Sequence record: MW630116.1
Reading direction: 5' to 3' (one strand)
DNA length: 64,000 nt
Origin: Escherichia phage vB_EcoM-ZQ3
The notes under the pieces were generated by a model, which was given only the letters and a program-made list of their open reading frames with translations, did no database searches and was not told the origin of the DNA. Below, in pieces: positions 31,140-61,182 of the stretch; the first letter of the stretch is position 1; every line of letters begins with the position of its first letter. A program made the translations under genes and the position numbers.

Positions 31140-31211
31140 TTTACAAACTCTTGAGAGCAGAGTATAATGCTCTCATTGGATAATAAACACCACCAATTGA
31201 AAGGTAATAAT

Positions 31212-31805
31212 ATGAACACACTGAAGAAACTTGTTGAATTCATCCGCACTAAACTGGGTACTGCTATGGCTAAAAATCTGACTGTCGAAGAACAGTATAA
31301 CGCAGCTGCAGATAAGTTGATTACCCAAATCAAAGAACTAAAAACGGCTTCTGTTAAATCTATTAATGAAGAAAAACGTATTCGCGAACTTGTTATTGAA
31401 AAGAATAAGCAAGCCGCTTCTAAGGAACGTGAAATTCGTAAGCTCCTGGCTGAAGGACAAGATGTTACCATGCATGCTAAGCTTGGTCTTCTGTATCGTC
31501 GAACTGCCGAACAACTTAATACAAAAGCTGACGGGTACGCTGCTATGCGAATTGAAATTGCTCGTAAGGTGGTTGAACTTGACGATGCTCGTCAGAATCT
31601 GGCAATCAAACTCGAATACATTCGTGAAACTCGAGCAGCTAATGCCCTTGGTATCTCTACGGCTGATGATGTAATTGAAATCGCTGCACTAACTAAGGTT
31701 GATATCGAAGACACTCTGACTCGTGTTGAAACGTTCAATGGCACACCAGCTGGTGTCGAAACCACTTCTGCTGATGTACAAGAATATATTAACTCTTTGA
31801 AATAA
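31212..31805 (+). CDS. Hypothetical coiled-coil protein
   Basis: 197 aa; heptad-rich; promoter cassette upstream. Confidence 0.5.
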
Positions 31806-31813
31806 AATAATAC

Positions 31814-31835
31814 GGAGGACTCCGGTCCTCCTTTT
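31814..31835 (+). terminator. Rho-independent terminator
   Basis: GGAGGAC-TCCG-GTCCTCC then TTTT. Confidence 0.55.
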
Positions 31836-31854
31836 GGATAATAAAGGAGTTAAC

Positions 31855-32277
31855 ATGCGAAACCAAAATAATGATATTGACTCAATGTTCGAAGAGTTCC
31901 GAAATAAGGTAAATCCACCTACGTCTTTAGTTGATTCATTACGATATGTTGCAACTGGACGTAAATGGTACTGGTCGTCTTCTTATGAGACAACTGAATA
32001 TGCAAATAACCGAAAATCTTTATTAGCCCCAGGTATTATGATTCATGATATCGGAGCTATTGCTAAACTAGTTGCGGACCATGATATTAGATTCACTGAT
32101 TTCGTTGCTCCTACGTGGTCTGTTTGTTGTTTAAACACTGAATGGGACTATATCAGTGAACGCTCTGAAGATTATTATGGTTTTAGAGATAAGCTCTTAA
32201 GGTCTAACATGTTTTATATCGATACTGAAGTTCTAGTCGATAATAAAATATTACTTTACGTTAATCGTCGATTCTGA
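31855..32277 (+). CDS. Hypothetical protein
   Basis: 140 aa from ATG after AGGAG. Confidence 0.5.
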   Translation: MRNQNNDIDSMFEEFRNKVNPPTSLVDSLRYVATGRKWYWSSSYETTEYANNRKSLLAPGIMIHDIGAIAKLVADHDIRFTDFVAPTWSVCCLNTEWDYISERSEDYYGFRDKLLRSNMFYIDTEVLVDNKILLYVNRRF

Positions 32278-32417
32278 AACTATGTATGAAGGCAAGCCTT
32301 TGCTTAAAAGAGTTGATGCTTTAAGTGCTATTGATGCGCTTTATGAAACCATGGTTGTTAGTCCTAATTTCACTAACAATTTAATCCTTGAGCAATTTAT
32401 TATGGAATGTAGAGAAT

Positions 32418-32813
32418 ATGTCAAAGCCAACCCTATACATGCCAATTAAGCCCTGGGCATACGAATACAAACGTAAATTAATCCCAAACGAAGTACTATT
32501 TGGCCCTATTTTAGCTTTAGCGTTTTTAATCTTTATGATTATAGGAGCTGTTTTAGATTCCAATAAAGTTATATCGTCTGATGCAGCGTTTTCATTAATG
32601 TTCGTCGCACCACTTATTGTACCATTTTTATTAATGCCTATTAATTGGGCAGGATATTGGCACCAAGGCCGTCATCACAGAGCTCGAGTTCGTGAGTGGA
32701 AAGTTCAGTGCGCAAAAGCCCAAGCTCAGTATGATGAAGCTGTTAAAAAGTATGAATACGAAGAAGCTATGGAATTCGTTAAGGAAATAAGATGCAAAAG
32801 CCTCAACTCTTAA
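32418..32813 (+). CDS. Predicted membrane protein
   Basis: 132 aa with two hydrophobic segments. Confidence 0.5.
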   Translation: MSKPTLYMPIKPWAYEYKRKLIPNEVLFGPILALAFLIFMIIGAVLDSNKVISSDAAFSLMFVAPLIVPFLLMPINWAGYWHQGRHHRARVREWKVQCAKAQAQYDEAVKKYEYEEAMEFVKEIRCKSLNS

Positions 32814-33043
32814 CCGTATGGCCGTCTCTTGGTGAGAACATTCTAATTTTTATTATGAGTATTGGCATGGGATTTGCCTTTGGATTAGTTGGATTTCTTA
32901 TTGACGGCGTTGTGTTAGGATTTATAGGGAACACTGGTGGATTCACAGACCAATGGCAGGACCTAAGATACACCCAAGCCTTTGCATCTATCGCATCATT
33001 TTGTACTGTAAGTCTATTTTTACTACGATTTTATAAACCATAA
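32792..33043 (+). CDS. Predicted membrane protein
   Basis: 83 aa, hydrophobic; overlaps the upstream gene. Confidence 0.45.
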   Translation: MQKPQLLTVWPSLGENILIFIMSIGMGFAFGLVGFLIDGVVLGFIGNTGGFTDQWQDLRYTQAFASIASFCTVSLFLLRFYKP

Positions 33044-33148
33044 CAAGAAAAATAAAAAGGTTTACGCTTCTCAAATGATTAGTTATAATGAACTCCTAGC
33101 TAGACGTGAAAATGAAACAATAGAAAACTTTATTAAGGAATGTAGAAA

Positions 33149-33454
33149 ATGAGTAAGATTATTGAAATTAAAGTACCAGAGTTTAATGATGCTAAATCCG
33201 CTTCAGATGCAATTTATAAACTTCTGAATCAAGCTGAACGTATCGAAGAAGAAGCAACAAAGATCGCAGACCAATATGCCGTATCATTTTCTGTAGGTGA
33301 TTATGGTAGTGGTCGTACTTATTATCCTAAGGGTGAAATTGTATCCCAGTGGATGAAAGATGAAATTGAAAATAATGGTGGTGATGTTAAACGTGAAGGT
33401 AATGGTTACGTTATTACTGAAGGTGCTTGGGTTTCGTCTTCTTCGATGTGCTAA
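33149..33454 (+). CDS. Small protein, member 1 of a tandem paralogous triplet (C-terminal GAWVSSSSMC)
   Basis: 101 aa; shares the helical N-terminus and C-terminal G-W-[VI]-[SA]-S-S-x-x-C tail with the next two ORFs. Confidence 0.55.
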   Translation: MSKIIEIKVPEFNDAKSASDAIYKLLNQAERIEEEATKIADQYAVSFSVGDYGSGRTYYPKGEIVSQWMKDEIENNGGDVKREGNGYVITEGAWVSSSSMC

Positions 33455-33463
33455 GGAATCATT

Positions 33464-33736
33464 ATGTCTAAAGAACAAACCGAACTGGCTGAAGCCGTAG
33501 CAAAAATCTATGCAGCTATTGAGGCTGCCAAAGAAATTGCTGATAAACAAAACACAACATTCGACTTGTATCCGGCTTATGGTATGGGTGGAACCTATCA
33601 TTCACCCGGACAACTTAAAGCCGATCTTGAACGTTGTACAAAAAACGGCTATGCTGAATGGGCTGACGTTTACCAATACGACTACAACCTGAGCCTCGAA
33701 ACTGGTGGTTGGATTGCATCTTCTCATACTTGCTAA
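33464..33736 (+). CDS. Small protein, member 2 of the triplet (C-terminal GGWIASSHTC)
   Basis: 90 aa; similar intergenic spacer gctaaggaa..atg. Confidence 0.55.
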   Translation: MSKEQTELAEAVAKIYAAIEAAKEIADKQNTTFDLYPAYGMGGTYHSPGQLKADLERCTKNGYAEWADVYQYDYNLSLETGGWIASSHTC

Positions 33737-33745
33737 GGAAACCAT

Positions 33746-33943
33746 ATGTCTCGTGAATTAGATTGTGCTGTACGTACCGCAGTAGCTGCTCTGGAAAACC
33801 TGTTCCAAATTGCAACAGAAGAACGCGAAGAAGTTACATTGTGGATTGAAGATAACGCAGGTCTGAATCTCCAGGACGCGATCTCATTATCCAATAATAG
33901 CATTACTGTTCAAGGCTGGGTATCATCTAGTTATTCTTGCTAA
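33746..33943 (+). CDS. Small protein, member 3 of the triplet (C-terminal QGWVSSSYSC)
   Basis: 65 aa. Confidence 0.55.
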   Translation: MSRELDCAVRTAVAALENLFQIATEEREEVTLWIEDNAGLNLQDAISLSNNSITVQGWVSSSYSC

Positions 33944-34005
33944 AACAGTTTACAACAAGATAGGGCTATGTTATAGTAGTCCTATCAAATTAAATGGAGT
34001 CCACA

Positions 34006-34245
34006 ATGATTTATTACGAAAGTATCGGAACCAAAGTGGTTGGTAAAACCATTACTCGTGAAAAGTTTGCAAAGATATTCGATATGCGTTATAAAAAATC
34101 TGAACACAAAGGCATCCGATTCGAAGATGCACATTGTACAATTTGCCCTTATAATGAAGATATAAATGGTACAATCGTTCCATTGGTAGAGGCTTCACAT
34201 GACGACCTCTGGGATGAATATAATATCGCATGTCGCGAAATTTAA
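34006..34245 (+). CDS. Hypothetical protein
   Basis: ATGGAG...ATG arrangement: the first ATG supplies GGAG as SD for the second; 79 aa. Confidence 0.45.
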   Translation: MIYYESIGTKVVGKTITREKFAKIFDMRYKKSEHKGIRFEDAHCTICPYNEDINGTIVPLVEASHDDLWDEYNIACREI

Positions 34246-34270
34246 GTAATCTAAATTCGAGGAAATTATT

Positions 34271-35227
34271 ATGATGTTAGTTATTGGTTCTCGTGCACTT
34301 CACTATCACGGTCTTATTGATTCTAACGCTATCAAAAATAGTGACTGGGACTTTATTGCAGACCAAGGTTCTTGGAATGCATTCAAAAATCAAATGATGG
34401 GTGTATATGTTCATCAAGATAACCCTGATGTCCAAGTTTTCAAATGCTTCCATAACGGACGCGAAACTCATTTTGAAGCATATATTGTTCCGGCAATCAC
34501 TAATGTCCGTGAACTAGTCGGTGAACTCACTCCTGAAGATTTCACGTCTTCTTATGACCTTTTAAAATACGCCAAGAAAAATTTGACTAAAGACCGTTTG
34601 AACGGGTTTTACTGGGCAACTCCTGAGATGTGCCTTGCAATTAAGATGTCTCATCGTTTCAAGAAAAATAATCCATTCTTTTTAAAGACTATGAACCATA
34701 TTCAGTATCTTCGTGGTAAAGGTGTTAAACTGAATGATGAACTTACTGAAATTATGCTGAAACGTCAGAAAGAAACCTTGAACTATGCTCACCCAGTTCT
34801 TGACACTTCTAAAAGTGCGTTCTTTAAAGATGACATCTATACATATGACCATGATACTATTCATGAAGCCATTGCACTAACAGACCGTCCAGCATATACA
34901 TTTTATATGAAAGACGGTTCTGAAGTCATGACCTCACGCGAGAAGTTCGAATCGTTACCAGAAATGGTCAAATTGGCCGGTGTATATGAAGAATCATGTG
35001 TACTAGCATTAGAACGTTCTCAGATTCCTAATGGCTTTGAAATCCATCCTCGTGATAGTTTTATGATGGCATTAGAAAAGGTCTGTACTTCAATCACATC
35101 AGGCTGGTTCCGTGAGTATGCCTGGGAGAACTACAGCAAAGTAGTAAGTATGTACCAAAGCTTAGGACATGATGATTACGTCAAACGTTTCAAACAAAAT
35201 TTCCATATGGTAAAACCTTTCAAATAA
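34271..35227 (+). CDS. Hypothetical protein, possible nucleotidyltransferase fold (weak)
   Basis: 318 aa; N-terminal IGSRAL...SDWDF loosely fits the G[GS]...D-x-D signature but with longer spacing than usual. Confidence 0.45.
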   Translation: MMLVIGSRALHYHGLIDSNAIKNSDWDFIADQGSWNAFKNQMMGVYVHQDNPDVQVFKCFHNGRETHFEAYIVPAITNVRELVGELTPEDFTSSYDLLKYAKKNLTKDRLNGFYWATPEMCLAIKMSHRFKKNNPFFLKTMNHIQYLRGKGVKLNDELTEIMLKRQKETLNYAHPVLDTSKSAFFKDDIYTYDHDTIHEAIALTDRPAYTFYMKDGSEVMTSREKFESLPEMVKLAGVYEESCVLALERSQIPNGFEIHPRDSFMMALEKVCTSITSGWFREYAWENYSKVVSMYQSLGHDDYVKRFKQNFHMVKPFK

Positions 35228-35306
35228 TTTCACCAAACTGTTTACAAGGTCTGTAGTTGTTGATACTATAGACCTATCAAAACAAATGAGTGAATGGAGA
35301 TACAAA

Positions 35307-35507
35307 ATGACTACTTTGAATAAACGTTTCGGTAAAGCTAAACCTGGCTGTGCAGCAGAACGTCGTTACATTTTCGCTCAGTTAGAAGATGTAGAGTATC
35401 AGATTAATCAAGTTCACATTACTGGCATCGAGCCTATGTGTGGCCTTGAAGCTCTTCGTGAAGTTCGTGACGGGTATCGTCGTGATATCGAAGAAATGTC
35501 AAAATAA
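35307..35507 (+). CDS. Hypothetical protein
   Basis: 66 aa from the second ATG of an ATGGAG...ATG arrangement. Confidence 0.45.
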   Translation: MTTLNKRFGKAKPGCAAERRYIFAQLEDVEYQINQVHITGIEPMCGLEALREVRDGYRRDIEEMSK

Positions 35508-35565
35508 GTGTACAAACTGATAGGGCTATGTTATAGTAGTCCTATTAAAACATGAGGAGAATAAT

Positions 35566-35871
35566 ATGAAATTAACAGAAACCAACCGAATTGGCCTTTT
35601 AACGATACTTACATCACCTTTTTATGCTGTGCTTTCTGTTGCAGTATTACAAAAGGCCTATGGCATGGACGGTGTTCCTGGTTGTGTATTTTTATCACCG
35701 TTTTTGTTATTAGTTGGTGCTCTGTTATTATACGCGACAACAGGTTTCGACCATAATGTTTGGGTCAAGTTTAAACGTAGATTAACTGAAGAAGAACACG
35801 CTGAAGCTCGTAAAAAAGCTATTGAATCTACCAATCTAGAAAATTTCATTAAAGAATGTCGAGGAAAATAA
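35566..35871 (+). CDS. Predicted membrane protein ending in the NFIKECR module
   Basis: 101 aa with two hydrophobic helices; C-terminal ...LENFIKECRGK. Confidence 0.5.
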   Translation: MKLTETNRIGLLTILTSPFYAVLSVAVLQKAYGMDGVPGCVFLSPFLLLVGALLLYATTGFDHNVWVKFKRRLTEEEHAEARKKAIESTNLENFIKECRGK

Positions 35872-35872
35872 T

Positions 35873-36559
35873 ATGAATAGTTCTAAAGTGTTTAATAGTC
35901 AAGCTCGTGCAGTAGGTGGTTTTGCTCATGCGATTAAAAATGACCAGATTAAAAACGAGCCTATGTTCTTCAACTGTAGTTTAGAATTTGCTTATAATAA
36001 CGGTGGTCCTATTACTCGCAGCTTCATCATGAACTTGCCTGATGATTGGAACACCGACCAGGTTGTATTTGATTCACGGGTCCACATGCTGATGCCTGGT
36101 TGGTACCCTGCTATCCCGGGTTATCACCATGATGATGTACCACGCCCGGATATTCCGGTTGGTCAACACTTTATTACTGCAGGACAACCTGATTATGACA
36201 ATCCTCGCTATTTGTCTGAACATATTCTTGGTCTTGTTAACGCTGATGTGTGTCCTACTCATTTTGCAACAGGAACTGCAGAGTTCAGTCAGATTCCTGA
36301 TGGCGAACTTATCTATCGCCAGTGGCACAAAGAAGTCCTCGAAAAAATTGAAAAAGGTGAACTAGAGAAATGGGAAGCTCCAGATCGTACTCTTCTTCAG
36401 TTTGATTGGCAAACATGGCACACTGGTTCTCGTGCAATTAGTAATGGATGGCGTTGGTTCGGACGTGTATCTCGTAATACAGACCGAGTTAAAAAGATTA
36501 CCAATGAAATTCGTGTCAATGCTCAAGTTTATCTGGAATTCCCTATGGAAGGCTGGTAA
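35873..36559 (+). CDS. Hypothetical protein
   Basis: 228 aa; His/Asp-rich segment (HHDDVP); no family assigned. Confidence 0.5.
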   Translation: MNSSKVFNSQARAVGGFAHAIKNDQIKNEPMFFNCSLEFAYNNGGPITRSFIMNLPDDWNTDQVVFDSRVHMLMPGWYPAIPGYHHDDVPRPDIPVGQHFITAGQPDYDNPRYLSEHILGLVNADVCPTHFATGTAEFSQIPDGELIYRQWHKEVLEKIEKGELEKWEAPDRTLLQFDWQTWHTGSRAISNGWRWFGRVSRNTDRVKKITNEIRVNAQVYLEFPMEGW

Positions 36560-36652
36560 TGATTAACAAAACATATTGGTCTTAATATAGACGATGGCAA
36601 CGAAGGTATTTCATACTATTCAGTAGATTGGACAGGATGTCCATCCTACTTA

Positions 36653-36964
36653 GTGAAACATATTTGCCAAGAATTTAAAATCGACCAGCCAGCAGGTATT
36701 ATCGTGAACAGATACATTAATGGATATCAACCTATCGATGAAGTAATACGAACAACTCAAGCTGAGCTTGAAAAGTTTTTCAATAAGTGCCAATGGATAA
36801 CAGGATGGATTATATTTGTACCGTCTATATGGTTTTTCAGTACTAAGGTGAGTTCTTTCGGTTTTGTTGATATTATTGCTATCTTATTAGCATCTAGTAT
36901 CATAAGTGTTGTTGGTGGCATCATTGGCGGCGGTACCGCCGCCATCATTATTAAATCTTATTAA
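36653..36964 (+). CDS. Predicted membrane protein with C-terminal glycine zipper; start codon uncertain
   Basis: ORF has no in-frame ATG (GTG at 36653); C-terminal VVGGIIGGGTAAIII. Confidence 0.35.
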   Translation: MKHICQEFKIDQPAGIIVNRYINGYQPIDEVIRTTQAELEKFFNKCQWITGWIIFVPSIWFFSTKVSSFGFVDIIAILLASSIISVVGGIIGGGTAAIIIKSY

Positions 36965-37048
36965 AAGTAGTTTACAAGAACATAAAGCCAAGATAAAGGC
37001 CAAGAATAATGAAGTTGAACGTTTTATTACCGAATGCAGGAATTTGAG

Positions 37049-37285
37049 ATGAGTATAGCAATTTACATTAAATCAGAATCATGTGATAGTTATCTGTACA
37101 CATACGATAAAGACGTGTCAGAAGAAAAAATCAAAGACGATCTTAATATGGACCTTGATATGTTCTGTCCTATTGCAGATTACAAACTTGCGGTCTCTAA
37201 TAGTGAAAGTCCATCTAAAGAAACGCGCATTGAAGAATTTATGTCCGAATTAATGGCTAAATCATGGGACCGAGATGATGAGTAA
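37049..37285 (+). CDS. Hypothetical acidic protein
   Basis: 78 aa; ATG overlaps the stop of a short upstream reading frame. Confidence 0.45.
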   Translation: MSIAIYIKSESCDSYLYTYDKDVSEEKIKDDLNMDLDMFCPIADYKLAVSNSESPSKETRIEEFMSELMAKSWDRDDE

Positions 37286-37732
37286 GAAAAATAAAGTGAA
37301 AGAACTATCAGCCGGTATTATTTTCCTTACCGAAGATAAAGAATTATTCATGGGGCGTGTAACTGGTTCTCGTCCTAAAGGTTCTTTAGCTCATCGGTGG
37401 GATATTCCTAAAGGACGTGTCGAGCCCGCCGAATCTCCTATTGAAGCCGCTATTCGCGAATGCGAAGAAGAAACTGGGTTTACACAATATGACCTGCCTT
37501 CCTGAAAGACCTAGGTGAACATCATTACTCAGACAATAAGAATATTCATCTGTTCCTATATACCATCCCTGTAGAGCACGAGCAATTCAGAAACAGTGTT
37601 TGTAATTCCTATCATACATTCCCAGACGGACGACAGATTCCTGAATTTGATGCATTCGCTTTAATTAAACCTTCTCAATGGGAATATGTAATGGGCAAAT
37701 CATTATATAAGGTGCTCACTACCCTCCTATAA
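37275..37732 (+). pseudogene. nudE: Nudix hydrolase (nudE / e.1 homolog) split by a -1 frameshift
   Basis: Frame A 37275..37505 carries the Nudix box GRVEPAESPIEAAIRECEEETG then stops; the homolog continues in the -1 frame 37499..37732 (LKDLGEHHYSD...); summed length about 153 aa, like T4 NudE. Confidence 0.6.
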
Positions 37733-37740
37733 GTAATAAA

Positions 37741-37764
37741 TACCTCCTATAAACGTGGGAGGTA
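37741..37764 (+). promoter_or_regulatory. Hairpin spanning the RBS of gene e with an internal late-promoter-like element
   Basis: TACCTCC-tataaacgtg-GGAGGTA; right arm is the e SD; loop holds TATAAACG (6/8 to TATAAATA); matches the arrangement described for T4 gene e. Confidence 0.5.
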
Positions 37765-37766
37765 TT

Positions 37767-38533: not shown

Positions 38534-38591
38534 TGTTTACTTCCTCCAAGGGTTTTGATACTATACATTCATCAACTACTTGGAGGAAATT

Positions 38592-39005
38592 ATGACTCGT
38601 ATCAATTTAACACTTGTTTCTGAACTGACCGACCAACATCTTATGGCTGAGTATCGTGAATTACCACGCGTATTTGGTGCAGTCCGTAAACATGTTCAAA
38701 ACGGTAAACGTGTAAAGGATTTTAAAATCTCCCCGACATTTATCTTAGGCACAGGTCATGTAACATTCTTTTACGACAAACTCGAATTTTTACGTTTACG
38801 TCAAATCGAGCTAATCGCTGAATGCTTGAAACGTGGTTTCAAAATCAAGGACACGACTGTCCAAGATATTTCCGACATCCCTGCCGAATTTCGTAATAAT
38901 TATGTCCCGTCCGAAGCGTCCATTGCGATAAGTCAAGCACGCTTAGACGAAAAAATTGCTCAACGTCCTACTTGGTACAAATACTATGGTAAATCAATTT
39001 ACTAA
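38592..39005 (+). CDS. denV: Endonuclease V, pyrimidine-dimer DNA glycosylase (denV)
   Basis: 137 aa; [35 protein letters not shown]... near-identical to T4 endonuclease V. Confidence 0.95.
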
Positions 39006-39096
39006 GGAAAAAGGTTGCGATGGTAAAGCTTAAACAGTTTACGCTTAAGTATTAATATGGTATAATTACTCTATCAAAACAAACAAGGAAACAAAA

Positions 39097-40516: not shown

Positions 40517-40522
40517 GGTTAT

Positions 40523-41664: not shown

Positions 41665-41720
41665 TTTACTTCTCCTCTAGATGTGTTACTATAGACCTGT
41701 CAACTAGAGGAGAAATCAAA

Positions 41721-42179
41721 ATGACTATCAATTCAGACGTTTTTATCCGCCGCAATAAACTCCGTCGAATCTTTGAAACGGAGTTCCGCAAAATAAATGC
41801 CAGTATAAAAGATGCTGCAAAGTCTCTTGGACTACCAGGCTTTCATATCAAGTATTCTCAACATCTCTTAGATCGTGCCATCCAGAGAGAAATAGATGAG
41901 AACTACGTTTTTGAATTATTTCGTAAAGTAAAAAATCATGTTAAAGAAGTTGCAGAATTTTTATCAATGCCGGCACGTCCGGATGTTGATGAAGATTTTG
42001 TCGAAGGCGTCGAATATCGCCCAGGCCGTTTAGAAATAACTGATGGAAATCTTTGGTTAGGACTTACAGTTTGTCGCGAAAATCCAGCATTCAAAATGAA
42101 GACTCTTCAATGCAGAATGGCTATTATTAACAGTAAACGACTACCAGGAAAAGCTTCTAAAGCAGTGATTAAAATCTAG
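41721..42179 (+). CDS. regB: RegB endoribonuclease
   Basis: 152 aa; matches T4 RegB as recalled; promoter cassette upstream. Confidence 0.8.
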   Translation: MTINSDVFIRRNKLRRIFETEFRKINASIKDAAKSLGLPGFHIKYSQHLLDRAIQREIDENYVFELFRKVKNHVKEVAEFLSMPARPDVDEDFVEGVEYRPGRLEITDGNLWLGLTVCRENPAFKMKTLQCRMAIINSKRLPGKASKAVIKI

Positions 42180-42187
42180 AGGTAAAC

Positions 42188-42730
42188 ATGAGAAAAGCAC
42201 TACTCGCTGGTCTATTTGCTCTTTCATTATCAGCACATAGCTCCGAGCATACTTTTAGTAATGTCCAACTCGATAACTTGAATTATGCTTATCAGTTTGG
42301 GGAACAGTTTTCTAAGGACGGAAAATTTAAAACGCATGAAAATATGCATAAGAAAGGACTTGGATACATAATGGCCGCAATACTATGGCAGGAATCATCT
42401 GCTGGTATTAATCTTAAAGATAAGAAAGGTCACCATGCGTATGGAATGTTCCAAAATTATCTACCAACAATGAGGGCAAGAATTAACCAGCTTGGTTATA
42501 ATATGTCTGATGCCCAAATTAAGAAAATGCTATCTAAGCGGTCTAATTCAGCCAGATGGGCTTATATCGAATTTTCTTATTGGTTAAATATACATAACGG
42601 GGATATAAGAAAAGCTATATCCTCATATAATGCGGGATGGAAGACAAGTGCTGGAAGTAAATATGCTTCTGAAGTCCTAGAAAAGGCTAATTACCTTAAA
42701 TCAAATAAACTACTGGAAATAAAAGAATGA
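42188..42730 (+). CDS. Secreted lytic-transglycosylase-like protein (SLT domain)
   Basis: Signal peptide MRKALLAGLFALSLSAHS; catalytic-type ILWQESS and SSYNAGW motifs. Confidence 0.65.
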   Translation: MRKALLAGLFALSLSAHSSEHTFSNVQLDNLNYAYQFGEQFSKDGKFKTHENMHKKGLGYIMAAILWQESSAGINLKDKKGHHAYGMFQNYLPTMRARINQLGYNMSDAQIKKMLSKRSNSARWAYIEFSYWLNIHNGDIRKAISSYNAGWKTSAGSKYASEVLEKANYLKSNKLLEIKE

Positions 42731-51818: not shown

Positions 51819-51873
51819 TGTACAACCAAGGATGGTTGGAGTATAATAAATTTTTCAACATGAGGAATATAAA

Positions 51874-52806: not shown

Positions 52807-52868
52807 ATCAGTTTACAACCAAGGATGGTTGGAGTATAATGAATCTATCTTAACGAGAGGAAAATATT

Positions 52869-54537: not shown

Positions 54538-54793
54538 AGTGTACGGGTATGACTCTACTATTCATAAATGCATTTATTGCGATAATGCGAAACGATTGCT
54601 GACTGTTAAGAAACAGCCATTCGAATTCATTAATGTTATGCCAGAAAAAGGTGTGTTCGATGATGAGAAAATTGCTGAGCTTCTGGTTAAGCTTGGACGT
54701 GAATCACAAGTCGGATTGACTATGCCTCAAGTGTTTGCTCCTGACGGAAGTCACATTGGTGGATTTGACCAACTGCGAGAATATTTTAAATGA
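54530..54793 (+). CDS. nrdC: Thioredoxin/glutaredoxin NrdC
   Basis: 87 aa from MFKVYGYDSTIHKCIYC; active-site CIYC; T4 NrdC-like. Confidence 0.85.
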   Translation: MFKVYGYDSTIHKCIYCDNAKRLLTVKKQPFEFINVMPEKGVFDDEKIAELLVKLGRESQVGLTMPQVFAPDGSHIGGFDQLREYFK

Positions 54794-55125
54794 ACAATAT
54801 TGATTTCACCAAAGCATATAAATTTGTAGCAACTCTTCTCGGCCCTGACGCTCCTACTAAGCTTGAAGTTTTAAATTCGATTCCGACTTCATTGGTTCGA
54901 GATGCTGAAATATGGACATGGGATGACCCGGCTGTTTGTGAAGACCTGTACATTCTGATGAATGACATGATGGTTAAAAAGCCTGAAACAATGGTTACTA
55001 TTACTGTTGAAGAATATAATCGCCTACAAGCCATCGAAGAGCTTCTGTGGAACATTGAATCTGCTTTGCCATCTGGGCTAGAATCCTGGATTGATTATGA
55101 AGAGCTTAATAAACTCCGCGGTTAA
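54790..55125 (+). CDS. Hypothetical protein
   Basis: 111 aa; ATGA overlap with nrdC. Confidence 0.5.
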   Translation: MNNIDFTKAYKFVATLLGPDAPTKLEVLNSIPTSLVRDAEIWTWDDPAVCEDLYILMNDMMVKKPETMVTITVEEYNRLQAIEELLWNIESALPSGLESWIDYEELNKLRG

Positions 55126-55253
55126 ACCGTGGTATTCGGCTCGATGGGAGACGGTCGAGCCGGACGTTGAAACAGTTTACAACGACGAAGAAACGTGTTA
55201 TGATGAGCCTTCAATAAATGAATTAATTGATATGGAAATGGGAAGAGATTATT

Positions 55254-55424
55254 ATGCAAGTTAAATTATTGTACCGTTTATTAAAAAATGGCAAGCATGA
55301 TTGGTATTTGCTTATTAAAACCGATCCGAATTTTTTCTCTGGACAACCATTTACAGTTCGTCCTACTAAACGTCAGCTTCGCAAAGCTAAACGTTCTCAT
55401 CGTAACTTTTATAGAGAATATTGA
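55254..55424 (+). CDS. Hypothetical small basic protein
   Basis: 56 aa; strongly basic C-terminus; early promoter and hairpin upstream. Confidence 0.4.
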   Translation: MQVKLLYRLLKNGKHDWYLLIKTDPNFFSGQPFTVRPTKRQLRKAKRSHRNFYREY

Positions 55425-55425
55425 T

Positions 55426-55851
55426 ATGAATATTTCTGAAACTCGCGGTAAATGGTTCAAGATTGTTAAAGAAGATGAAGAACTACAAGTCAAGTTTCCT
55501 GAATTAAAGAAAGGAACACTCATCAAGGTAATTGGTACTACTACCGAAGATGGTTATGGCGGCCATGGCATTAACGAAGTGATGTTGAACACAGGTGAGA
55601 AACTTTGCATCTATGACCGTGATACTTCTCTTTGGTGCTTCTGGGAATCCCATTCAATAGATGAACTCGAAGAAATTGACCAAGTAGTTTGTGTTGGCGA
55701 ATTCGAAGGTGAACGTATTTCTTATGCTCTAGCTAAATTAGCCGCCCAAGAAAATAATGACGGTTATGAAGGTAATCTGATGCAAGCCGCAGCGGAATAC
55801 ATTGAATATTTAGAAAGACGTTTTCATCGAGACTTTTATAACGTTTACTAA
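55426..55851 (+). CDS. Hypothetical protein adjacent to gene 49 (position of T4 pin; identity not established)
   Basis: 141 aa from ATG; track ORF extends upstream to 55288 in the same frame. Confidence 0.45.
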   Translation: MNISETRGKWFKIVKEDEELQVKFPELKKGTLIKVIGTTTEDGYGGHGINEVMLNTGEKLCIYDRDTSLWCFWESHSIDELEEIDQVVCVGEFEGERISYALAKLAAQENNDGYEGNLMQAAAEYIEYLERRFHRDFYNVY

Positions 55852-55853
55852 AT

Positions 55854-55861
55854 TATAAATA
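55854..55861 (+). promoter_or_regulatory. Late promoter TATAAATA upstream of gene 49, followed by an ACCCTTA...TAAGGGT inverted repeat
   Basis: Exact consensus 30 nt before the ATG; inverted repeat 55862..55886 overlaps the SD. Confidence 0.5.
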
Positions 55862-55890
55862 CCCTTATCTATTTAAGGTAAGGGTTTATC

Positions 55891-56364
55891 ATGTTATTAT
55901 CAGGCGCAAAATATAAAGAAGAAAAACAAAAATTTTATGATGCACAGAATGGTAAGTGTCCTATTTGCCACCGTGAATTAGACCCTGATGTTCAAGGTAA
56001 CCATCTTGACCACGACCATGAATTAAACGGGCCAAAAGCAGGTAGAGTTCGTGGGTTACTCTGTAATCTGTGCAACGCAGCAGAAGGCCAAATGAAGCAT
56101 AAGTTCAACCGTTCCGGTCTTAAAGGACGTGATGTCGACTACTTAGAATGGCTTGAAGCTCTTCTTGCTTATTTGAAACAAGATTATTCTGATAATAATA
56201 TCCATCCTAATTTTGTTCCAGACAAAACTAAAGAGTTCTCAAGACTAGGTAAAGAGGAAATGATGTCCGAGATGCTTCAAAGAGGATTTGAATATAATGA
56301 ATCTGATACCAAAACACAATTAATAGCTTCATTCAAAAAGCAGCTTAGAAAGAGTTTAAAATGA
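55891..56364 (+). CDS. 49: Endonuclease VII, Holliday-junction resolvase (gene 49)
   Basis: 157 aa; MLLSGAKYKEEKQKFYDAQNGKCPICHREL...HLDHDHELNGPKAG; T4 endo VII-like. Confidence 0.95.
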   Translation: MLLSGAKYKEEKQKFYDAQNGKCPICHRELDPDVQGNHLDHDHELNGPKAGRVRGLLCNLCNAAEGQMKHKFNRSGLKGRDVDYLEWLEALLAYLKQDYSDNNIHPNFVPDKTKEFSRLGKEEMMSEMLQRGFEYNESDTKTQLIASFKKQLRKSLK

Positions 56365-58178
56365 AAATTGAAAAAGAAATTGAAGGATTAATTCATAAAA
56401 CTAATAAAGATCTTTTGAACGAGAATGCTAATAAAGATTCTCGTGTTTTTCCAACTCAACGGGACCTTATGGCTGGTATTGTGTCTAAGCACATTGCCAA
56501 AAATATGGTCCCGTCTTTTATTATGAAAGCACATGAAAGCGGAATTATCCATTTCCATGATATTGATTATTCTCCTGCTCTTCCATTTACTAATTGCTGT
56601 TTAGTAGATTTAAAAGGAATGCTTGAGAATGGATTTAAATTAGGCAATGCTCAAATTGAAACGCCTAAATCTATTGGCGTTGCTACTGCAATTATGGCAC
56701 AAATTACTGCACAAGTTGCTTCGCATCAGTATGGTGGAACTACATTTGCGAATGTAGATAAAGTCCTTTCTCCTTATGTTAAACGCACCTACGCAAAACA
56801 TATTGAGGACGCAGAAAAATGGCAAATCGCTGATGCATTGAATTATACCCAATCTAAAACAGAAAAAGACGTATACGATGCATTCCAAGCGTATGAATAT
56901 GAAGTAAATACTCTCTTTAGTTCAAACGGACAAACGCCTTTTGTAACAATTACGTTTGGTACGGGAACTGACTGGGCTGAACGAATGATTCAGAAAGCAA
57001 TTCTGAAAAATCGTATTAAAGGCCTTGGACGCGATGGGATAACTCCTATTTTTCCTAAACTTGTTATGTTTGTTGAAGAAGGTGTTAATCTTTATAAAGA
57101 TGATCCGAACTATGATATTAAACAACTTGCGTTAGAATGTGCAAGCAAAAGAATGTATCCTGACATTATTTCTGTTAAGAATAATAAAGCTATTACCGGT
57201 TCTTCAGTTCCTGTTTCTCCGATGGGCTGTCGTAGTTTCTTGAGCGTATGGAAAGATTCGACTGGTAATGAAATTCTTGATGGACGTAATAATCTTGGTG
57301 TTGTAACACTGAATCTTCCTCGTATTGCGTTAGATTCTTATATTGGAACACAGTTCAATGAACAGAAATTTGTTGAGCTATTTAATGAACGAATGGATCT
57401 GTGTTTTGAAGCTTTGATGTGTAGAATTAGTTCCTTAAAAGGAGTTAAAGCTACTGTTGCTCCTATTCTTTACCAAGAAGGTGCATTTGGGGTTCGTCTT
57501 AAACCTGATGACGACATAATTGAGTTATTTAAAAACGGTAGAAGTTCGGTGTCTTTAGGATACATTGGTATTCACGAATTGAATATTCTTGTCGGTCGTG
57601 ATATTGGGCAAGAAATTTTAACTAAAATGAATGCTCATCTTAAACAGTGGTCTGAAAGAACTGGATTTGCTTTTAGTTTATATTCTACTCCTGCTGAAAA
57701 CCTTTGTTATCGCTTCTGTAAACTTGATACAGAAAAATATGGAAGTGTAAAAGATGTTACTGATAAAGGCTGGTACACTAATAGTTTCCATGTTTCAGTA
57801 GAAGAAAATATCACTCCGTTTGAAAAGATTTCTCGCGAAGCCCCATATCATTTCATTGCGACTGGCGGACATATTTCTTATGTTGAACTTCCTGATATGA
57901 AAAATAACCTAAAAGGTCTTGAGGCTGTATGGGATTATGCTGCACAACATTTAGATTATTTTGGTGTTAATATGCCAGTAGATAAATGTTTTACATGTGG
58001 AAGTACTCATGAAATGACTCCTACTGAAACCGGATTTGTTTGTTCTATTTGTGGAGAAACTGACCCTAAAAAGATGAACACCATAAGAAGAACATGCGGT
58101 TATCTTGGAAATCCTAACGAACGCGGATTTAATCTCGGCAAAAATAAAGAAATCATGCATAGGGTTAAACACCAATGA
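56361..58178 (+). CDS. nrdD: Anaerobic ribonucleoside-triphosphate reductase NrdD (uninterrupted)
   Basis: 605 aa; C-terminal Zn and glycyl-radical region; continuous ORF with no intron. Confidence 0.95.
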   Translation: MKIEKEIEGLIHKTNKDLLNENANKDSRVFPTQRDLMAGIVSKHIAKNMVPSFIMKAHESGIIHFHDIDYSPALPFTNCCLVDLKGMLENGFKLGNAQIETPKSIGVATAIMAQITAQVASHQYGGTTFANVDKVLSPYVKRTYAKHIEDAEKWQIADALNYTQSKTEKDVYDAFQAYEYEVNTLFSSNGQTPFVTITFGTGTDWAERMIQKAILKNRIKGLGRDGITPIFPKLVMFVEEGVNLYKDDPNYDIKQLALECASKRMYPDIISVKNNKAITGSSVPVSPMGCRSFLSVWKDSTGNEILDGRNNLGVVTLNLPRIALDSYIGTQFNEQKFVELFNERMDLCFEALMCRISSLKGVKATVAPILYQEGAFGVRLKPDDDIIELFKNGRSSVSLGYIGIHELNILVGRDIGQEILTKMNAHLKQWSERTGFAFSLYSTPAENLCYRFCKLDTEKYGSVKDVTDKGWYTNSFHVSVEENITPFEKISREAPYHFIATGGHISYVELPDMKNNLKGLEAVWDYAAQHLDYFGVNMPVDKCFTCGSTHEMTPTETGFVCSICGETDPKKMNTIRRTCGYLGNPNERGFNLGKNKEIMHRVKHQ

Positions 58179-58645
58179 ATTATGATAGATTTTATCCTTG
58201 CGATTTTGTGAATGGCCCTGGTTGCAGGGTCGTTCTTTTCGTTACAGGTTGTTTGCATAAATGCGAAGGGTGTTATAATAAATCAACATGGAACGCTAGA
58301 AATGGTATTCCATTCACGGGTGAAACACTAGAGCAATTAATTGAATGTTTGAATAATGATTATATAGAAGGATTAACTATAACTGGAGGAGACCCTCTCT
58401 ATCCCGATAACAGAGATGTTGTTCATTGCATTGCTCAAACAGTAAAAAATCTTTATCCCAATAAAAGCATTTGGTTGTGGACAGGATATAAGTTTGAAGA
58501 TATTAAACAACTAGAAATGCTTAAATATGTTGATGTTATTATTGATGGGAAGTATGAGAAAAATCTTCCGACCAAAAAACTGTGGCGAGGATCAGATAAT
58601 CAGCGACTTTGGTCAAATACCGATGGGGTGTGGAAACATGATTAA
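58175..58645 (+). CDS. nrdG: Anaerobic RNR activating enzyme NrdG (radical SAM)
   Basis: 156 aa; Cys-rich radical-SAM-type N-terminus (CDFVNGPGCR...CLHKCEGC). Confidence 0.93.
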   Translation: MNYDRFYPCDFVNGPGCRVVLFVTGCLHKCEGCYNKSTWNARNGIPFTGETLEQLIECLNNDYIEGLTITGGDPLYPDNRDVVHCIAQTVKNLYPNKSIWLWTGYKFEDIKQLEMLKYVDVIIDGKYEKNLPTKKLWRGSDNQRLWSNTDGVWKHD

Positions 58646-58755
58646 ATTGAATTACATTATGGATACTATAAATGATATGATTTTTCGTTTTGGTCCAGAA
58701 TTTTATTCGCAGTATAGTTTGGTGTTTATCAATGCTTAGTTAATTAAGGGTAAAT

Positions 58756-58971
58756 ATGTATAAATTTCGTAAAGGTTTAGCTGATTTTCTTACAACTGTA
58801 ACGTTCTTTTTGTTTATGGCAGTTGGAGCTATTTTTCTTATTCCTTTTACTGTTGTATTTTTCTTGATTAGTTTAATTTCTCCGGAAAAGGGTTTATCCT
58901 CCAGCGAATTCAATGAACGTTTGGACAAAATTACTAATAAACTGAATTCTGTTCTTGATAAAAAGGCTTAA
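58756..58971 (+). CDS. Small membrane protein
   Basis: 71 aa; one long hydrophobic helix. Confidence 0.45.
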   Translation: MYKFRKGLADFLTTVTFFLFMAVGAIFLIPFTVVFFLISLISPEKGLSSSEFNERLDKITNKLNSVLDKKA

Positions 58972-58973
58972 TT

Positions 58974-59291
58974 ATGATTAGTTTTGAGCGGTATGTGGTA
59001 GAGAGTTGGAAAGGTTTTGATATGTTCGGTAATGACTATTATTTTTACGAATGTAATCTAAATCCTAGTTTTTGGGCTGGACGTGAACGAGATCTCGAAG
59101 AAATTAATGCTCGTGCCGAATTGTTAGGTGAACTGCCTACAGTTTATTTTACCTTTGATGAATCTGGATTTGTTATCCAGGTTTATTTTCCTGAAGAAAA
59201 CTCTGGCGAGGATTCTGTTAATCCTCCTTATTGGGCTTACCAAGGAATTATTTCTCGTGGAACAAAACTCGAACTTAAAGAACAAGATTGA
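58974..59291 (+). CDS. Hypothetical protein
   Basis: 105 aa. Confidence 0.5.
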   Translation: MISFERYVVESWKGFDMFGNDYYFYECNLNPSFWAGRERDLEEINARAELLGELPTVYFTFDESGFVIQVYFPEENSGEDSVNPPYWAYQGIISRGTKLELKEQD

Positions 59292-59580
59292 AATTTATGG
59301 CATCCCTGAAGAAGTAGGACGTTGTCCGGGATGTTATACTGTTACAAAACTTTTAAAGGAGCTCAATGCTCCTTATACATTTTATAAAGTCCTCACTAAT
59401 AATGGTAAGATTGAATATGACCGTCCTTTAATCGTATCTCTTGCTAAACGTGCAGGATTCACTTCACTTAATATTCGTTATCCTGTCATATTTTTAAATG
59501 ATAAGAAACAAAAGAATATTGCAGAGTTTAAAAAGTCCTTGATTTCATTAGGATATGACTCTGATATCATAGAAGATTGA
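59287..59580 (+). CDS. Glutaredoxin-like protein (possible NrdH-type redoxin); start codon unresolved
   Basis: IEIYGIPEEVGRCPGCY redox motif; no in-frame ATG near the N-terminus (candidates ATT 59287, GTG 59257); overlaps the upstream gene. Confidence 0.45.
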   Translation: MEIYGIPEEVGRCPGCYTVTKLLKELNAPYTFYKVLTNNGKIEYDRPLIVSLAKRAGFTSLNIRYPVIFLNDKKQKNIAEFKKSLISLGYDSDIIED

Positions 59581-59745
59581 CCAGGTGCCGCCTGGTCTTC
59601 TTTATCTCATTTCTAATATAATCCATTGGAATCTTCACTTCACTATCTCCTTGTGCCCCTCTCAAATCGAAAATATTTTCATAAAACAGTTTACATCCTC
59701 AATAGATGTGTTAAGATTAAACCATCCACTATAGAGGAAAATAAA

Positions 59746-59928
59746 ATGACAATTGAAGATAAAGAAATTAAGGTCGACCAGTACTATTCTGTCAATGGTA
59801 ATGCAATACAGATAACCAGAGTTTCAAGCCTGGATGTTTGGTACCGTTCAATCAAATATCCAGAAATTGGTGAAATGCTTTGTGACCGTGGTATCTTCTG
59901 TTCAATTGCGAAGGAAATTAAGCCATGA
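59746..59928 (+). CDS. Hypothetical small protein
   Basis: 60 aa; GAGGAAAA RBS downstream of a promoter cassette. Confidence 0.4.
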   Translation: MTIEDKEIKVDQYYSVNGNAIQITRVSSLDVWYRSIKYPEIGEMLCDRGIFCSIAKEIKP

Positions 59929-60173
59929 TTAGTTTAGATTCAAAGAAAGTTGTTCTAACTCTTAATGTAAACAACGAACGTCCAGTATTCGTTACCATTT
60001 CCGATTTGCATGTTGAAATTGCTAATGGCGTCCGTACTTATCAAACGTCTAAAACACAATGGGACTATATCCCAATGTTGACGCTTACTCAGCGTTTAGA
60101 ATCAATCGGTCTTAAAGACCTTTCAGTAAGTGAAATGAATTTTATCAAACGCATTGTATCAATCAACCTCTGA
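59925..60173 (+). CDS. Hypothetical protein
   Basis: 82 aa; ATGA overlap. Confidence 0.45.
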   Translation: MISLDSKKVVLTLNVNNERPVFVTISDLHVEIANGVRTYQTSKTQWDYIPMLTLTQRLESIGLKDLSVSEMNFIKRIVSINL

Positions 60174-60180
60174 GGTACTT

Positions 60181-60474
60181 ATGGGTAAAACGTATCGTCG
60201 TAAAGATTTGAAAGTTCGTGATTACGACTATTTTGGTAAACGTAAAGCTCCTGACGGTGTTAGCCACAAAGTCATGGTTGAAAACATTTTCCGCTCAGAT
60301 AAATGGAAACGTATGAAAGGCGTTGATTCTGAAGTCAAGAACGAAATGAATCGACAACTCCGCAAAGAAGTTCGTAAGTTGAAAAAAGATGTTTACAGTA
60401 AAGAAGATTATGATTATAATACTTCTCATACTGAAGCCAAACGTAAAGCTAATGAATGTTATCGTTACAGTTGA
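60181..60474 (+). CDS. Hypothetical basic protein
   Basis: 97 aa; GAGGT RBS. Confidence 0.45.
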   Translation: MGKTYRRKDLKVRDYDYFGKRKAPDGVSHKVMVENIFRSDKWKRMKGVDSEVKNEMNRQLRKEVRKLKKDVYSKEDYDYNTSHTEAKRKANECYRYS

Positions 60475-60481
60475 GGAAATT

Positions 60482-60616
60482 ATGAATATCAAACGAATGC
60501 TTTTTAAGCAGGGATTATATACTTTAAATGTTAATCCAAAGGGTGATACAACTAAATGGTCTGTAAATGACTGGATTAAGTTCATCGATGAAAATGGGGC
60601 GTGGAACACAAAATGA
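60482..60616 (+). CDS. Hypothetical small protein
   Basis: 44 aa; GAGGAAA RBS. Confidence 0.35.
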   Translation: MNIKRMLFKQGLYTLNVNPKGDTTKWSVNDWIKFIDENGAWNTK

Positions 60617-60813
60617 ATCCTGAAAATATTGTGTCATGGCAACTTCGTGAAGAACGTGCCGAATTCTTTGCCAATATGAAACTCAATGGTGTTGAGGACG
60701 AAGACTTTTTACGTTGGTTCTGGATTTACAAATACAAAGAATGCCAACATGCCGTGCTATTGACTTGCGCAGCTATGTATGAAGGCTGGAAAGGCGCTAA
60801 AAAGTTCGGTTAA
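60613..60813 (+). CDS. Hypothetical protein
   Basis: 66 aa; ATGA overlap. Confidence 0.4.
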   Translation: MNPENIVSWQLREERAEFFANMKLNGVEDEDFLRWFWIYKYKECQHAVLLTCAAMYEGWKGAKKFG

Positions 60814-60876
60814 TAATGTACGACGATAGGAAGACATGTTATTATCTTCCTATCGTCTTAAAATGAGGAAAATATC

Positions 60877-61116
60877 ATGGCCCAAGAATTAGATTTTATC
60901 AAATTCAAAAAACACCTCGACGTTAAAATTGGGGATTCAATTGTTAGGATTGAGTATGACATTTTAACAGATGCTATTACTGTTAGTTGTGATGGAAATA
61001 GTTTCAGCTTCGATACAACCGAAAATAAATACCCAATCTATAAAGGCATCTTTGATATAGGTGTTGATATTACTCCACGTGATACAAATTACTTACTTTT
61101 CATGCTTAAAAAATAG
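60877..61116 (+). CDS. Hypothetical protein
   Basis: 79 aa; promoter inside a 13-bp-arm inverted repeat upstream. Confidence 0.45.
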   Translation: MAQELDFIKFKKHLDVKIGDSIVRIEYDILTDAITVSCDGNSFSFDTTENKYPIYKGIFDIGVDITPRDTNYLLFMLKK

Positions 61117-61182
61117 TATATAAACTCTTGAGAGCAGAGTATAATTCTCTCATTGGATAATAAAATAACCGAGGAAAATAAT

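Follow-up and report, generated by a model that had tools for sequence, protein, structure and literature searches.

The closest described relatives of the element considered here are the promoter-early stem-loop (PeSL) cassettes, for which a role in modular shuffling has already been described (PMC2839356, PMC4122927). Arbiol et al. 2010 reported PeSLs in phages RB49 and phi1 that have promoter and terminator activity, together with mini-circles arising from recombination between neighboring PeSLs, and located the stem-loop most often between the −35 and −10 elements or overlapping the −10 (PMC2839356); Comeau et al. 2014 extended PeSLs to T4/PST and nt-1/KVP40 (PMC4122927). The present analysis concerns 64,000 nucleotides of Escherichia phage vB_EcoM-ZQ3 (sequence record MW630116.1), referred to in their entirety as the window, in which a near-identical 43-bp cassette occurs twice, upstream of the orthologs of e.6 (copy 1) and 55.2 (copy 2). 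The window is 95–98% identical to genomes of Mosigvirus, the RB69-like T-even phages, and the closest of these is phage 308Ecol101PP.

The two copies classify as PeSL-type cassettes, elements of a kind already described. They are intergenic: the stop codon of the gene before each copy falls within an AT-rich tract, and a Shine-Dalgarno sequence and ATG are at the 3′ end; the −35 and −10 are separated by ∼17 bp, and a stem-loop, weakened in copy 2, overlaps the −10. Such cassettes are present in many copies per genome, among the small non-essential genes of hyperplastic regions, and the cassette is found at breakpoints of insertions, deletions, and replacements between close relatives. The reading favored here, to which a probability of about 0.8 is given, is that these are PeSL-type early promoter cassettes carrying an insulating hairpin, whose copies have been homogenized and which act as homology patches for neighboring modules.

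The Repeat and Its Predicted Promoters

The 43-mer AAACTCTTGAGAGCAGAGTATAAT(G/T)CTCTCATTGGATAATAAA is located at 31145–31187 and 61122–61164, in both cases on the + strand, and its only mismatch is G31169 in copy 1 versus T61146 in copy 2; matches with ≤3 mismatches were found in none of 100 dinucleotide-preserving shuffles of the window. The copies are in direct orientation with a spacing of 29,977 bp. Their ungapped similarity extends 19 nt further upstream to a total of 62 nt (92%; 31126–31187 versus 61103–61164), so covering the final codons and stop codons of both upstream open reading frames (ORFs), and ends sharply after AATAAA, ahead of two differing ribosome-binding sites. The extra 19 nt (TG-TTAAAAAATA-T-TA) are mostly A-tract and stop codon and are present at other early promoters of the window too; since this combination is common elsewhere, the extension was dropped as independent evidence of a longer conversion tract. 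The stop codons are TAA at 31137–31139, within TTAAAAAATAA, and TAG at 61114–61116, within TTAAAAAATAG, and the downstream ATG codons are at 31212 and 61183, respectively. There is no BLASTP alignment between the two downstream proteins, and the upstream ORFs are unrelated, their best protein alignment having an E value of 0.12 over 15 residues. The gene after copy 1 was identified from matching features annotated as e.6 in AR1, RB32, RB14, and RB51, and RB69 e.6 is at 71391–71984; its 197-residue product has no Pfam match. RB69 gp55.2 is encoded at 42099–42434.

The earlier note on this DNA had described a near-identical 43-bp direct repeat with a single mismatch, its copies about 30 kb apart and each a promoter preceding an unrelated gene, and the coordinates, the shuffles, and the lack of protein alignment bear this out. 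The TTTACA-17-TATAAT of copy 1 is the best σ70 match between 25 and 45 kb, with 11/12 consensus positions; copy 2 combines a perfect −10 with a poorer −35. Each copy is predicted to be a σ70-type, T4-like early promoter, which would drive e.6 (copy 1) or 55.2 (copy 2). A GTTTAC-type −35, an A-rich tract at −40 to −44, a TATAAT-type −10, and orientation toward an early-gene ortholog are all present, and both copies lie between an upstream stop codon and a Shine-Dalgarno/ATG; the extended −10 TGn that is common in T4 early promoters is absent, GAG preceding the TATAAT. From the spacing to the −10, transcription of copy 1 is predicted to start near A31175, at the 3′ end of the right hairpin arm. 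At the copy 2 position, the −35 varies among Mosigvirus relatives (TTTACA, TATACA, GTGTAC, and ATGCAC). A 2006 survey gives A-rich tracts at −40 to −44 as typical of T4-like early promoters and lists the RB69 orthologs as predicted early promoters Pe:72069 (e.6), Pe:42515 (55.2), and Pe:165022 (ndd) (PMC1524935), Pe:42515 being predicted weak with a score of 8.9 (PMC1524935 supplement).

Three other identities were rejected. An intrinsic (rho-independent) terminator does not fit, the stem being followed by AUUGGAUAAUAAA and no U-tract, and neither site appeared in a terminator scan. A MotA-dependent middle promoter, defined by a box (a/t)(a/t)(a/t)TGCTT(t/c)A centered at −30, 11–13 bp upstream of the −10, was discarded as no TGCTT is present in either spacer and the TGCTTAA at 61103–61109 is misplaced for the TATAAT. 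The sequence of the copies also does not fit a late promoter (TATAAATA). A search of the whole window with Rfam 15 covariance models returned three tRNAs only, with nothing relevant at 30900–31400 even at E ≤ 1. As a separate observation, the TGCTTAA at 61103–61109 (TGCTTCA in RB69) is MotA-box-like and precedes TAAACT by 11 nt (window 61103–61126); this could be a weak middle promoter overlapping the degenerate −35 of copy 2, or may be due to chance, the downstream hexamer being unconserved in RB69.

An Old Cassette Subfamily with a Covarying Stem

The cassettes belong to a subfamily with the layout AAACTCTTG-stem-CAGAGTATAAT-stem, which in Mosigvirus precedes ndd, e.6, 55.2, and an ORF of the pseT region, in T4 precedes motB, and in a third T-even lineage precedes 55.2. 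RB69 has four copies, before ndd (with a core identical to that of window copy 1), e.6, 55.2, and the ORF adjoining pseT.1; the last is at 136623–136673, between pseT.1 and ORF231c, and it should be noted that this fourth copy was traced in RB69 alone, although some Mosigvirus records show four places in a BLAST search with the cassette. The single copy in T4 is directly upstream of motB, an early gene (PMC6070864), and has the stem GGGACC/GGTCCC. The third lineage, with genomes of ∼170.5 kb, has copies before 55.2 (GGGACC/GGTCCT) and before a pseT-region gene (GGGAGC/GCTCCT); other stem variants are GGGGTC/GACCCC and, in the RB69 55.2 copy, CGAGAGA/TCTCTCG. The e.6 ortholog in AR1-like Tequatroviruses is preceded by a degenerate cassette, and that in a further lineage with genomes of ∼175 kb by a promoter with other arms (GTGTAGGAG/CTCCTACAC), between which the −10 is again enclosed; neither form is present in T4. 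An exact-pattern scan of IMG/VR gave 24 loci. Cassettes of the GATAGGACTA type are distinct from this subfamily. Because cassette-gene associations are shared across lineages, the two copies are best regarded as resident promoters of e.6 and 55.2; the recent cassette transposition that had been proposed for them does not agree with associations this old, the 55.2 cassette being present in another T-even lineage and cassette-like e.6 promoters in two others.

When 19 distinct cassettes are aligned without gaps, 97.4% of the cells of the 8-bp stem are paired, and 5 of its 8 pairs change on both sides; none of 500 shuffles reached the observed values, and sliding the partner columns gave 33–54% pairing. 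G·U pairs are tolerated in the stem (14/152 cells). Outside the stem, AAACTCT and GAGTATAAT do not vary across genera, whereas the stem arms change. The one difference between the two 43-mers of the window falls in the stem, T61146 of copy 2 producing a C-U mismatch opposite C61135 that breaks one pair, and in RB69 and one further relative this mismatch is compensated by A in place of C, which restores pairing (GAGAGA/TCTCTC).

Probable Homogenization of the Copies

Among the Mosigvirus cassettes of e.6, 55.2, and ndd, 0–1 of 31 core positions differ (4 for the RB69 allele of 55.2), whereas the 55.2 orthologs in the third T-even lineage differ at 5–10 of these 31 positions and at 13–18 of 43. 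The leader of the Mosigvirus e.6 cassette, TTGGATAATAAA, is of the 55.2 type, as at the 55.2 locus of T4, and is unlike the ACGGATTTTAAA found at e.6 in AR1-like phages. Paralogs that are more alike than orthologs are a signature of concerted evolution, from which short-tract gene conversion within the Mosigvirus lineage can be inferred; the pattern suggests that the near identity of the copies comes from such ectopic gene conversion, in addition to functional constraint.

The same similarity might be ascribed to selection only, with a common regulatory requirement, for example, a phage or host factor that recognizes AAACTCTTG...CAGAGTATAAT and the palindrome, constraining all positions in what would be a small early regulon (ndd, e.6, 55.2, and motB), and no ectopic recombination. 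The invariance of AAACTCT and GAGTATAAT across genera while the arms vary does point to a sequence-specific constraint on a spacer that would usually vary freely, the associations of cassette and gene are of long standing, and reviews have remarked that T4 early promoters contain additional conserved information whose role is unknown (PMC2988021). Nevertheless, stems are common to paralogs in one genome and differ between orthologs, which under selection only would need parallel compensatory double changes at three loci; RB69 holds different stems at once (GAGAGC, GAGAGA, and GGGAGC); the tolerance of G·U argues against a single protein reading a fixed palindrome; and mosaic boundaries fall at the cassette. 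An explanation by selection only is therefore unlikely. It is quite unlikely, too, that the AAACTCTTG-stem-CAGAGTATAAT cassettes constitute a factor-recognized promoter class (ndd, e.6, 55.2, the pseT-region ORF, and T4 motB) whose identity is kept by targeted gene conversion. In that case, the reader of the invariant spacer bases and of the hairpin enclosing the −10 would be a phage or host protein or a modified RNA polymerase, and conversion would be targeted, for example, via structure-specific cleavage of the hairpin; the cassettes would then be programmed sites of recombination and regulation as opposed to passive homology patches.

Proposed Function of the Hairpin

The loop of the copy 1 hairpin contains most of the −10 hexamer, and its RNA fold has a free energy of −13.8 kcal/mol (z = −3.9), compared with only −7.1 kcal/mol (z = −1.1) for copy 2. 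Self-complementarity is widespread in the region: at least 24 early-promoter-like cassettes are present between 25 and 62 kb of the window, most with self-complementary arms, and in most the spacer can pair either with the bases that directly follow the −10 or with the Shine-Dalgarno region. When the spacers of 24 early promoters were paired with downstream sequence, their own arms gave a mean of −11.5 kcal/mol and mixed arms −7.5 kcal/mol, a value as low as the former being reached in 0/10,000 permutations; hence the complementarity covaries from one promoter to the next and does not simply result from the common consensus. As the left arm is upstream of the predicted start, the transcript of the promoter itself cannot form the hairpin, and only read-through RNA can, a deduction made from the geometry of the cassette.

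A true terminator can occupy the position of the stem-loop. In T4-type phages (loci L029–L035), the place that the promoter plus stem has in Mosigvirus, ∼40–70 nt before the 55.2 ATG, is taken by a canonical terminator (GGGCTTCGGCCC and then T6), and the leader TTGGATAATAAAAT is kept after it. The terminator together with the retained leader indicates a breakpoint inside the cassette, and a promoter/hairpin module and a terminator module have evidently been exchanged at this one position upstream of 55.2. The stem-loops of RB49 PeSLs terminate transcription in vivo (PMC2839356).

A role at the level of DNA has also to be considered, in which a cruciform, or a single-stranded presentation of the −10, in supercoiled DNA tunes promoter opening or provides endonuclease VII with a target for starting recombination. 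The −10 hexamer is within the loop here and in many other cassettes of the window, the authors of the PeSL work speculated that the stem-loop could be the target of a recombination protein, and one mapped RB49 mini-circle crossover is within the loop (PMC2839356). However, in DNA, the 14 G·U cells would be G-T on one strand and A-C on its complement, a pattern that favors sense-strand RNA over a cruciform or a protein-bound palindrome; stems of 6–8 bp with 8-nt loops generally extrude poorly; and the pairing, in other cassettes of the window, of a spacer arm with a Shine-Dalgarno sequence 25–30 nt downstream is sensible only in RNA. A DNA-level structure is thus very unlikely, and a hairpin in read-through RNA is preferred.

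Two further types of cassette in the window can be described beside these. In those at 38541–38588 (upstream of denV, ATG at 38592), 41670–41714, and 59696–59738, the right arm covers the Shine-Dalgarno sequence and the left arm is in the spacer, as in the example TTCCTCCAAG...CTTGGAGGAA (−19.8 kcal/mol, z = −3.3); at such cassettes the ribosome-binding site would be sequestered in read-through transcripts and not in internally started ones. This resembles the known control of T4 genes e, 49, and I-TevI. In another near-identical promoter pair, 51819–51856 and 52812–52849 (36 nt, 92%, 993 bp apart), the hairpin (CAACCA-AGGA-TGGTTG) is wholly within the spacer, upstream of the −10, and represents a different PeSL subclass in the same genome.

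Breakpoints and the 30-kb Interval

Gene content changes at the edges of both copies. AV113 and F27 are without the neighboring promoter (60817–60860) and the module of the 79-residue ORF, which that promoter and copy 2 together bracket in the window; their junction is at the −35 of copy 2, the stop codon of the upstream gene running directly into TTTACAAACTC.... An independent deletion, internal in EP32a, likewise ends at this −35. The 79-residue ORF of 308Ecol101PP is an allele of ∼80% identity amid DNA that is 100% identical, with the patch of divergence ending at the 5′ edge of the cassette; at least five alleles of copy 2 are present among nine Mosigvirus sequences. For copy 1, the preceding gene is another one in two metagenomic contigs (L021 and L054), and the break falls at the −35; homology with AR1-like phages starts exactly at the 5′ edge of the cassette, and that with many Mosigviruses starts at the neighboring promoter 30851–30897 (the matches begin at window 30836–30898). 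The third T-even lineage has the same cassette and upstream flank ahead of three different genes. Elsewhere in the window, cassettes at 26090–26136 and 26422–26468, which are 96% identical and 332 bp apart, flank an internal-protein-like gene (ORF 26158–26421) that is missing from RB69, where the single promoter is a chimera of both cassettes; by its arrangement, this is a textbook cassette-mediated insertion/deletion. The ORF begins with MKTYKEFIAE, an N terminus of the internal-protein capsid-targeting type, and the N-terminal repeat recurs at 25794 and 39090.

The interval between copies 1 and 2 contains e, denV, regB, vs, tk, rI, nrdC, pin, 49, nrdD, and nrdG; signature motifs in the window itself locate lysozyme e at ∼37.8 kb and endonuclease VII (gene 49) at ∼56.0 kb. 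Genes e and 49 are essential in T4, so that the product of a crossover between the copies would be non-viable and only non-crossover outcomes would persist; a 30-kb duplication would exceed the headful capacity of T4-type phages. Among 50,697 phage records, with the requirement that ≥80% of a junction be covered in one place, the deletion junction (frd.3-flank, cassette, 55.2-flank) was present in 0 of 166 matching records and the reciprocal junction (ORF075-flank, cassette, e.6-flank) in 0 of 530. That the copies are a working crossover substrate through which 30 kb are deleted, duplicated, or exchanged, giving variants visible in stocks or relatives, is accordingly highly improbable, although T4-type recombination can use homology patches of <50 bp (PMC2839356), recombination between cassettes 332 bp and ∼300 bp apart has shaped the region, and rare intracellular products might form between distant copies. 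The published PeSL events, which also weigh against such a substrate, join neighboring cassettes ∼0.4–1.4 kb apart (PMC2839356).

The recombination proposed in the earlier note thus holds for neighboring modules and probably for gene conversion; its extension to deletion or exchange of the intervening 30 kb does not. The check that it suggested, a search for the cassette at gene-content breakpoints in relatives, was positive in AV113, F27, EP32a, 308Ecol101PP, L021, and L054.

Proposed Mechanism

In the PeSL-type reading, the A-rich tract, the −35, and the TATAAT would be recognized by host σ70 RNA polymerase, and transcription would start ∼7 nt downstream, near 31175 and 61152, so that e.6 and 55.2 would be expressed immediately after infection. 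The inverted repeat, whose left arm is in the spacer and whose right arm spans about −7 to +1, would form a hairpin only in read-through RNA, where, by analogy with the terminator activity of RB49 PeSLs, it would most likely be an attenuator or a structure protecting 3′ ends, insulating small gene modules. The old-subfamily copies would be kept near-identical by short-tract ectopic recombination and strong functional constraint, and, as the relatives show, the cassettes would be homology patches for inserting, deleting, and replacing neighboring small modules. A crossover between the two copies considered here would delete or duplicate 30 kb, and only non-crossover products would survive.

Several observations weigh against this reading. 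In copy 2, the −35 (TATATA) is weak and the stem weakened (−7.1 kcal/mol, z = −1.1), so that this copy may perform poorly both as a promoter and as a hairpin. No U-tract follows the stem, the sequence there being AUUGGAUAAUAAA, and the hairpin is hence not a canonical intrinsic terminator. In RB69, 4 of 31 core positions distinguish the 55.2 copy from that of e.6, and the copy in the pseT region, with its ortholog-type stem retained, is not homogenized, which indicates that conversion has been patchy or partial; selection alone could lie behind part of the similarity of the copies. The ends of window-versus-RB69 alignments are near promoters in 9 of 30 cases, versus 1.8 expected at random positions (0/5,000 random draws), but the enrichment relative to other gene junctions is not significant (odds ratio 2.5, Fisher p = 0.14), and for gaps of ≥40 nt in the same comparison, p = 0.50; no promoter-specific enrichment is therefore claimed from it. 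Finally, promoter activity and a role of the hairpin in the phage are deduced from the sequence.

Features of the Two Loci and Neighboring Regions

The coordinates of the cassettes, their parts, and adjacent genes are collected in Table 1.

Table 1. Features at the two cassette copies and the neighboring early promoters (window coordinates)
Feature	Position	Strand	Details
Neighboring early-promoter cassette upstream of Frd3-like ORF	30851..30897	+	Repeat family D1
Frd3-like ORF upstream of copy 1	30912–31139	+	Pfam PF05798 Phage_FRD3, E = 4e-37
Copy 1, A/T-rich upstream tract	31126..31139	+	UP-element-like; contains last codons and TAA of Frd3-like ORF
Copy 1, predicted core promoter	31140..31168	+	−35 TTTACA 31140–31145, 17-bp spacer, −10 TATAAT 31163–31168
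Copy 1, hairpin	31152..31175	+	Arms TGAGAGCA 31152–31159 and TGCTCTCA 31168–31175; 8-nt loop GAGTATAA
Copy 1, leader	31176..31211	+	Conserved TTGGATAATAAA 31176–31187 ends repeat; then unique sequence, Shine-Dalgarno GAAAGG 31199–31204
Copy 1, gene	31212..31805	+	T4/RB69 e.6 ortholog, 197 aa
Neighboring early-promoter cassette, different subfamily	60817..60860	+	13-bp hairpin 60822–60857 around −10; −20.3 kcal/mol, z = −5.3
79-aa ORF upstream of copy 2	60877–61116	+	RB69ORF075c ortholog
Copy 2, A/T-rich upstream tract	61103..61116	+	Contains last codons and TAG of 79-aa ORF
Copy 2, predicted core promoter	61117..61145	+	Degenerate −35 TATATA 61117–61122, 17-bp spacer, −10 TATAAT 61140–61145
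Copy 2, hairpin	61129..61152	+	Arms TGAGAGCA 61129–61136 and TTCTCTCA 61145–61152
Copy 2, leader	61153..61182	+	TTGGATAATAAA 61153–61164 ends repeat; then Shine-Dalgarno GAGG 61171–61174
Copy 2, gene	61183..61515	+	gp55.2 ortholog, 110 aa, DUF7570; Pfam PF24454, E = 4.8e-40

The gene preceding e.6 in Mosigvirus is of the Frd3 family; in T4, frd.3 adjoins frd/32 and e.7 precedes e.6, and at frd.2/32, RB69 contains a 228-bp ORF (ORF245c) that is not annotated. Relocation of a small gene module from one early region to another appears to have occurred. A second difference from relatives is in the tRNA cluster, where window 27994–28873 contains an extra tRNA-Asn (28001–72) and a 223-residue ORF (28141–28812) between tRNA-Met (27920–27994) and tRNA-Arg (28798–28873). 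The ORF weakly matches DUF559 (Vsr-like endonuclease), RAP, and NUMOD3, RB69 is without homologous DNA at this location (the alignment breaks at 27991 and 28870), and only two tRNAs are annotated in 308Ecol101PP; the insertion looks like one of the homing-endonuclease type. The structural-gene block at 7851–19036 is only ∼80% identical to RB69, compared with 90–95% for the flanking blocks, and appears to be a diverged baseplate/tail module.

Comparison with Known Systems

With the RB49 and phi1 PeSLs, the cassettes share the stop codon in an AT-rich tract, the σ70-like promoter, the stem-loop, and the Shine-Dalgarno/ATG, as well as their many repeats in hyperplastic regions and their location at insertions, deletions, and replacements between relatives (PMC2839356). 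They differ in that the RB49 stems are G/C-rich (GGGG...CCCC) and the promoters a near-perfect TTGACA-N17-TATAAT, whereas the −35 here is TTTACA and the stem GAGAGC/GCTCTC; in that the activities of the RB49 and phi1 elements were shown experimentally, those of the present elements being predicted from sequence; and in that the published events join neighboring cassettes and not copies 30 kb apart (PMC2839356). The T4/PST PeSLs resemble the present cassettes in coming from the T-even subfamily, in their promoter consensus TTTACW-N17-TAYWAT, and in their association with gene exchanges such as ndd.4/ndd.5, but the PST figure places the stem-loops, with a consensus of AGNA...TCNT, immediately before the promoter, whereas the present stem encloses the −10 (PMC4122927). 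Mosigvirus and the AAACTCTTG...CAGAGTATAAT subfamily are described in neither Arbiol et al. 2010 nor Comeau et al. 2014 (PMC2839356, PMC4122927).

Elements orthologous to those of the window, Pe:72069, Pe:42515, and Pe:165022 in the type Mosigvirus RB69, are listed in Nolan et al. 2006 as hidden Markov model hits only, and the available part of that source does not describe near identity, hairpin covariation, or association with breakpoints (PMC1524935). The elements of Repoila et al. 1994, as recounted in a later paper (via PMC2839356), are T4-type early promoters with weaker, AT-richer stem-loops that take part in the shuffling of small modules around internal-protein genes, and are matched in the window by the internal-protein-type gene between the 26090 and 26422 cassettes that is absent from RB69; they flank internal-protein genes, whereas the pair described here would drive e.6 and 55.2.

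What is new in the present analysis is modest: the definition of a subfamily (ndd, e.6, 55.2, motB, and the pseT-region ORF), the covariation of its stem with tolerance of G·U, the exchange of the stem with a terminator in T4, and the evidence for homogenization within a genome. The evolution of the −10-enclosing stem is cleanly compensatory in at least three T-even lineages, which together with the tolerance of G·U indicates a role in read-through RNA, and the ndd/e.6/55.2/motB subfamily, which looks homogenized, provides a small and tractable case for ectopic gene conversion in T4-type phages. These findings do not overturn current understanding; they carry the PeSL concept over to the RB69-like phages, a group in wide use for therapy and structural biology, whose early promoters would double as insulating hairpins and as recombination junctions that shuffle small accessory genes.

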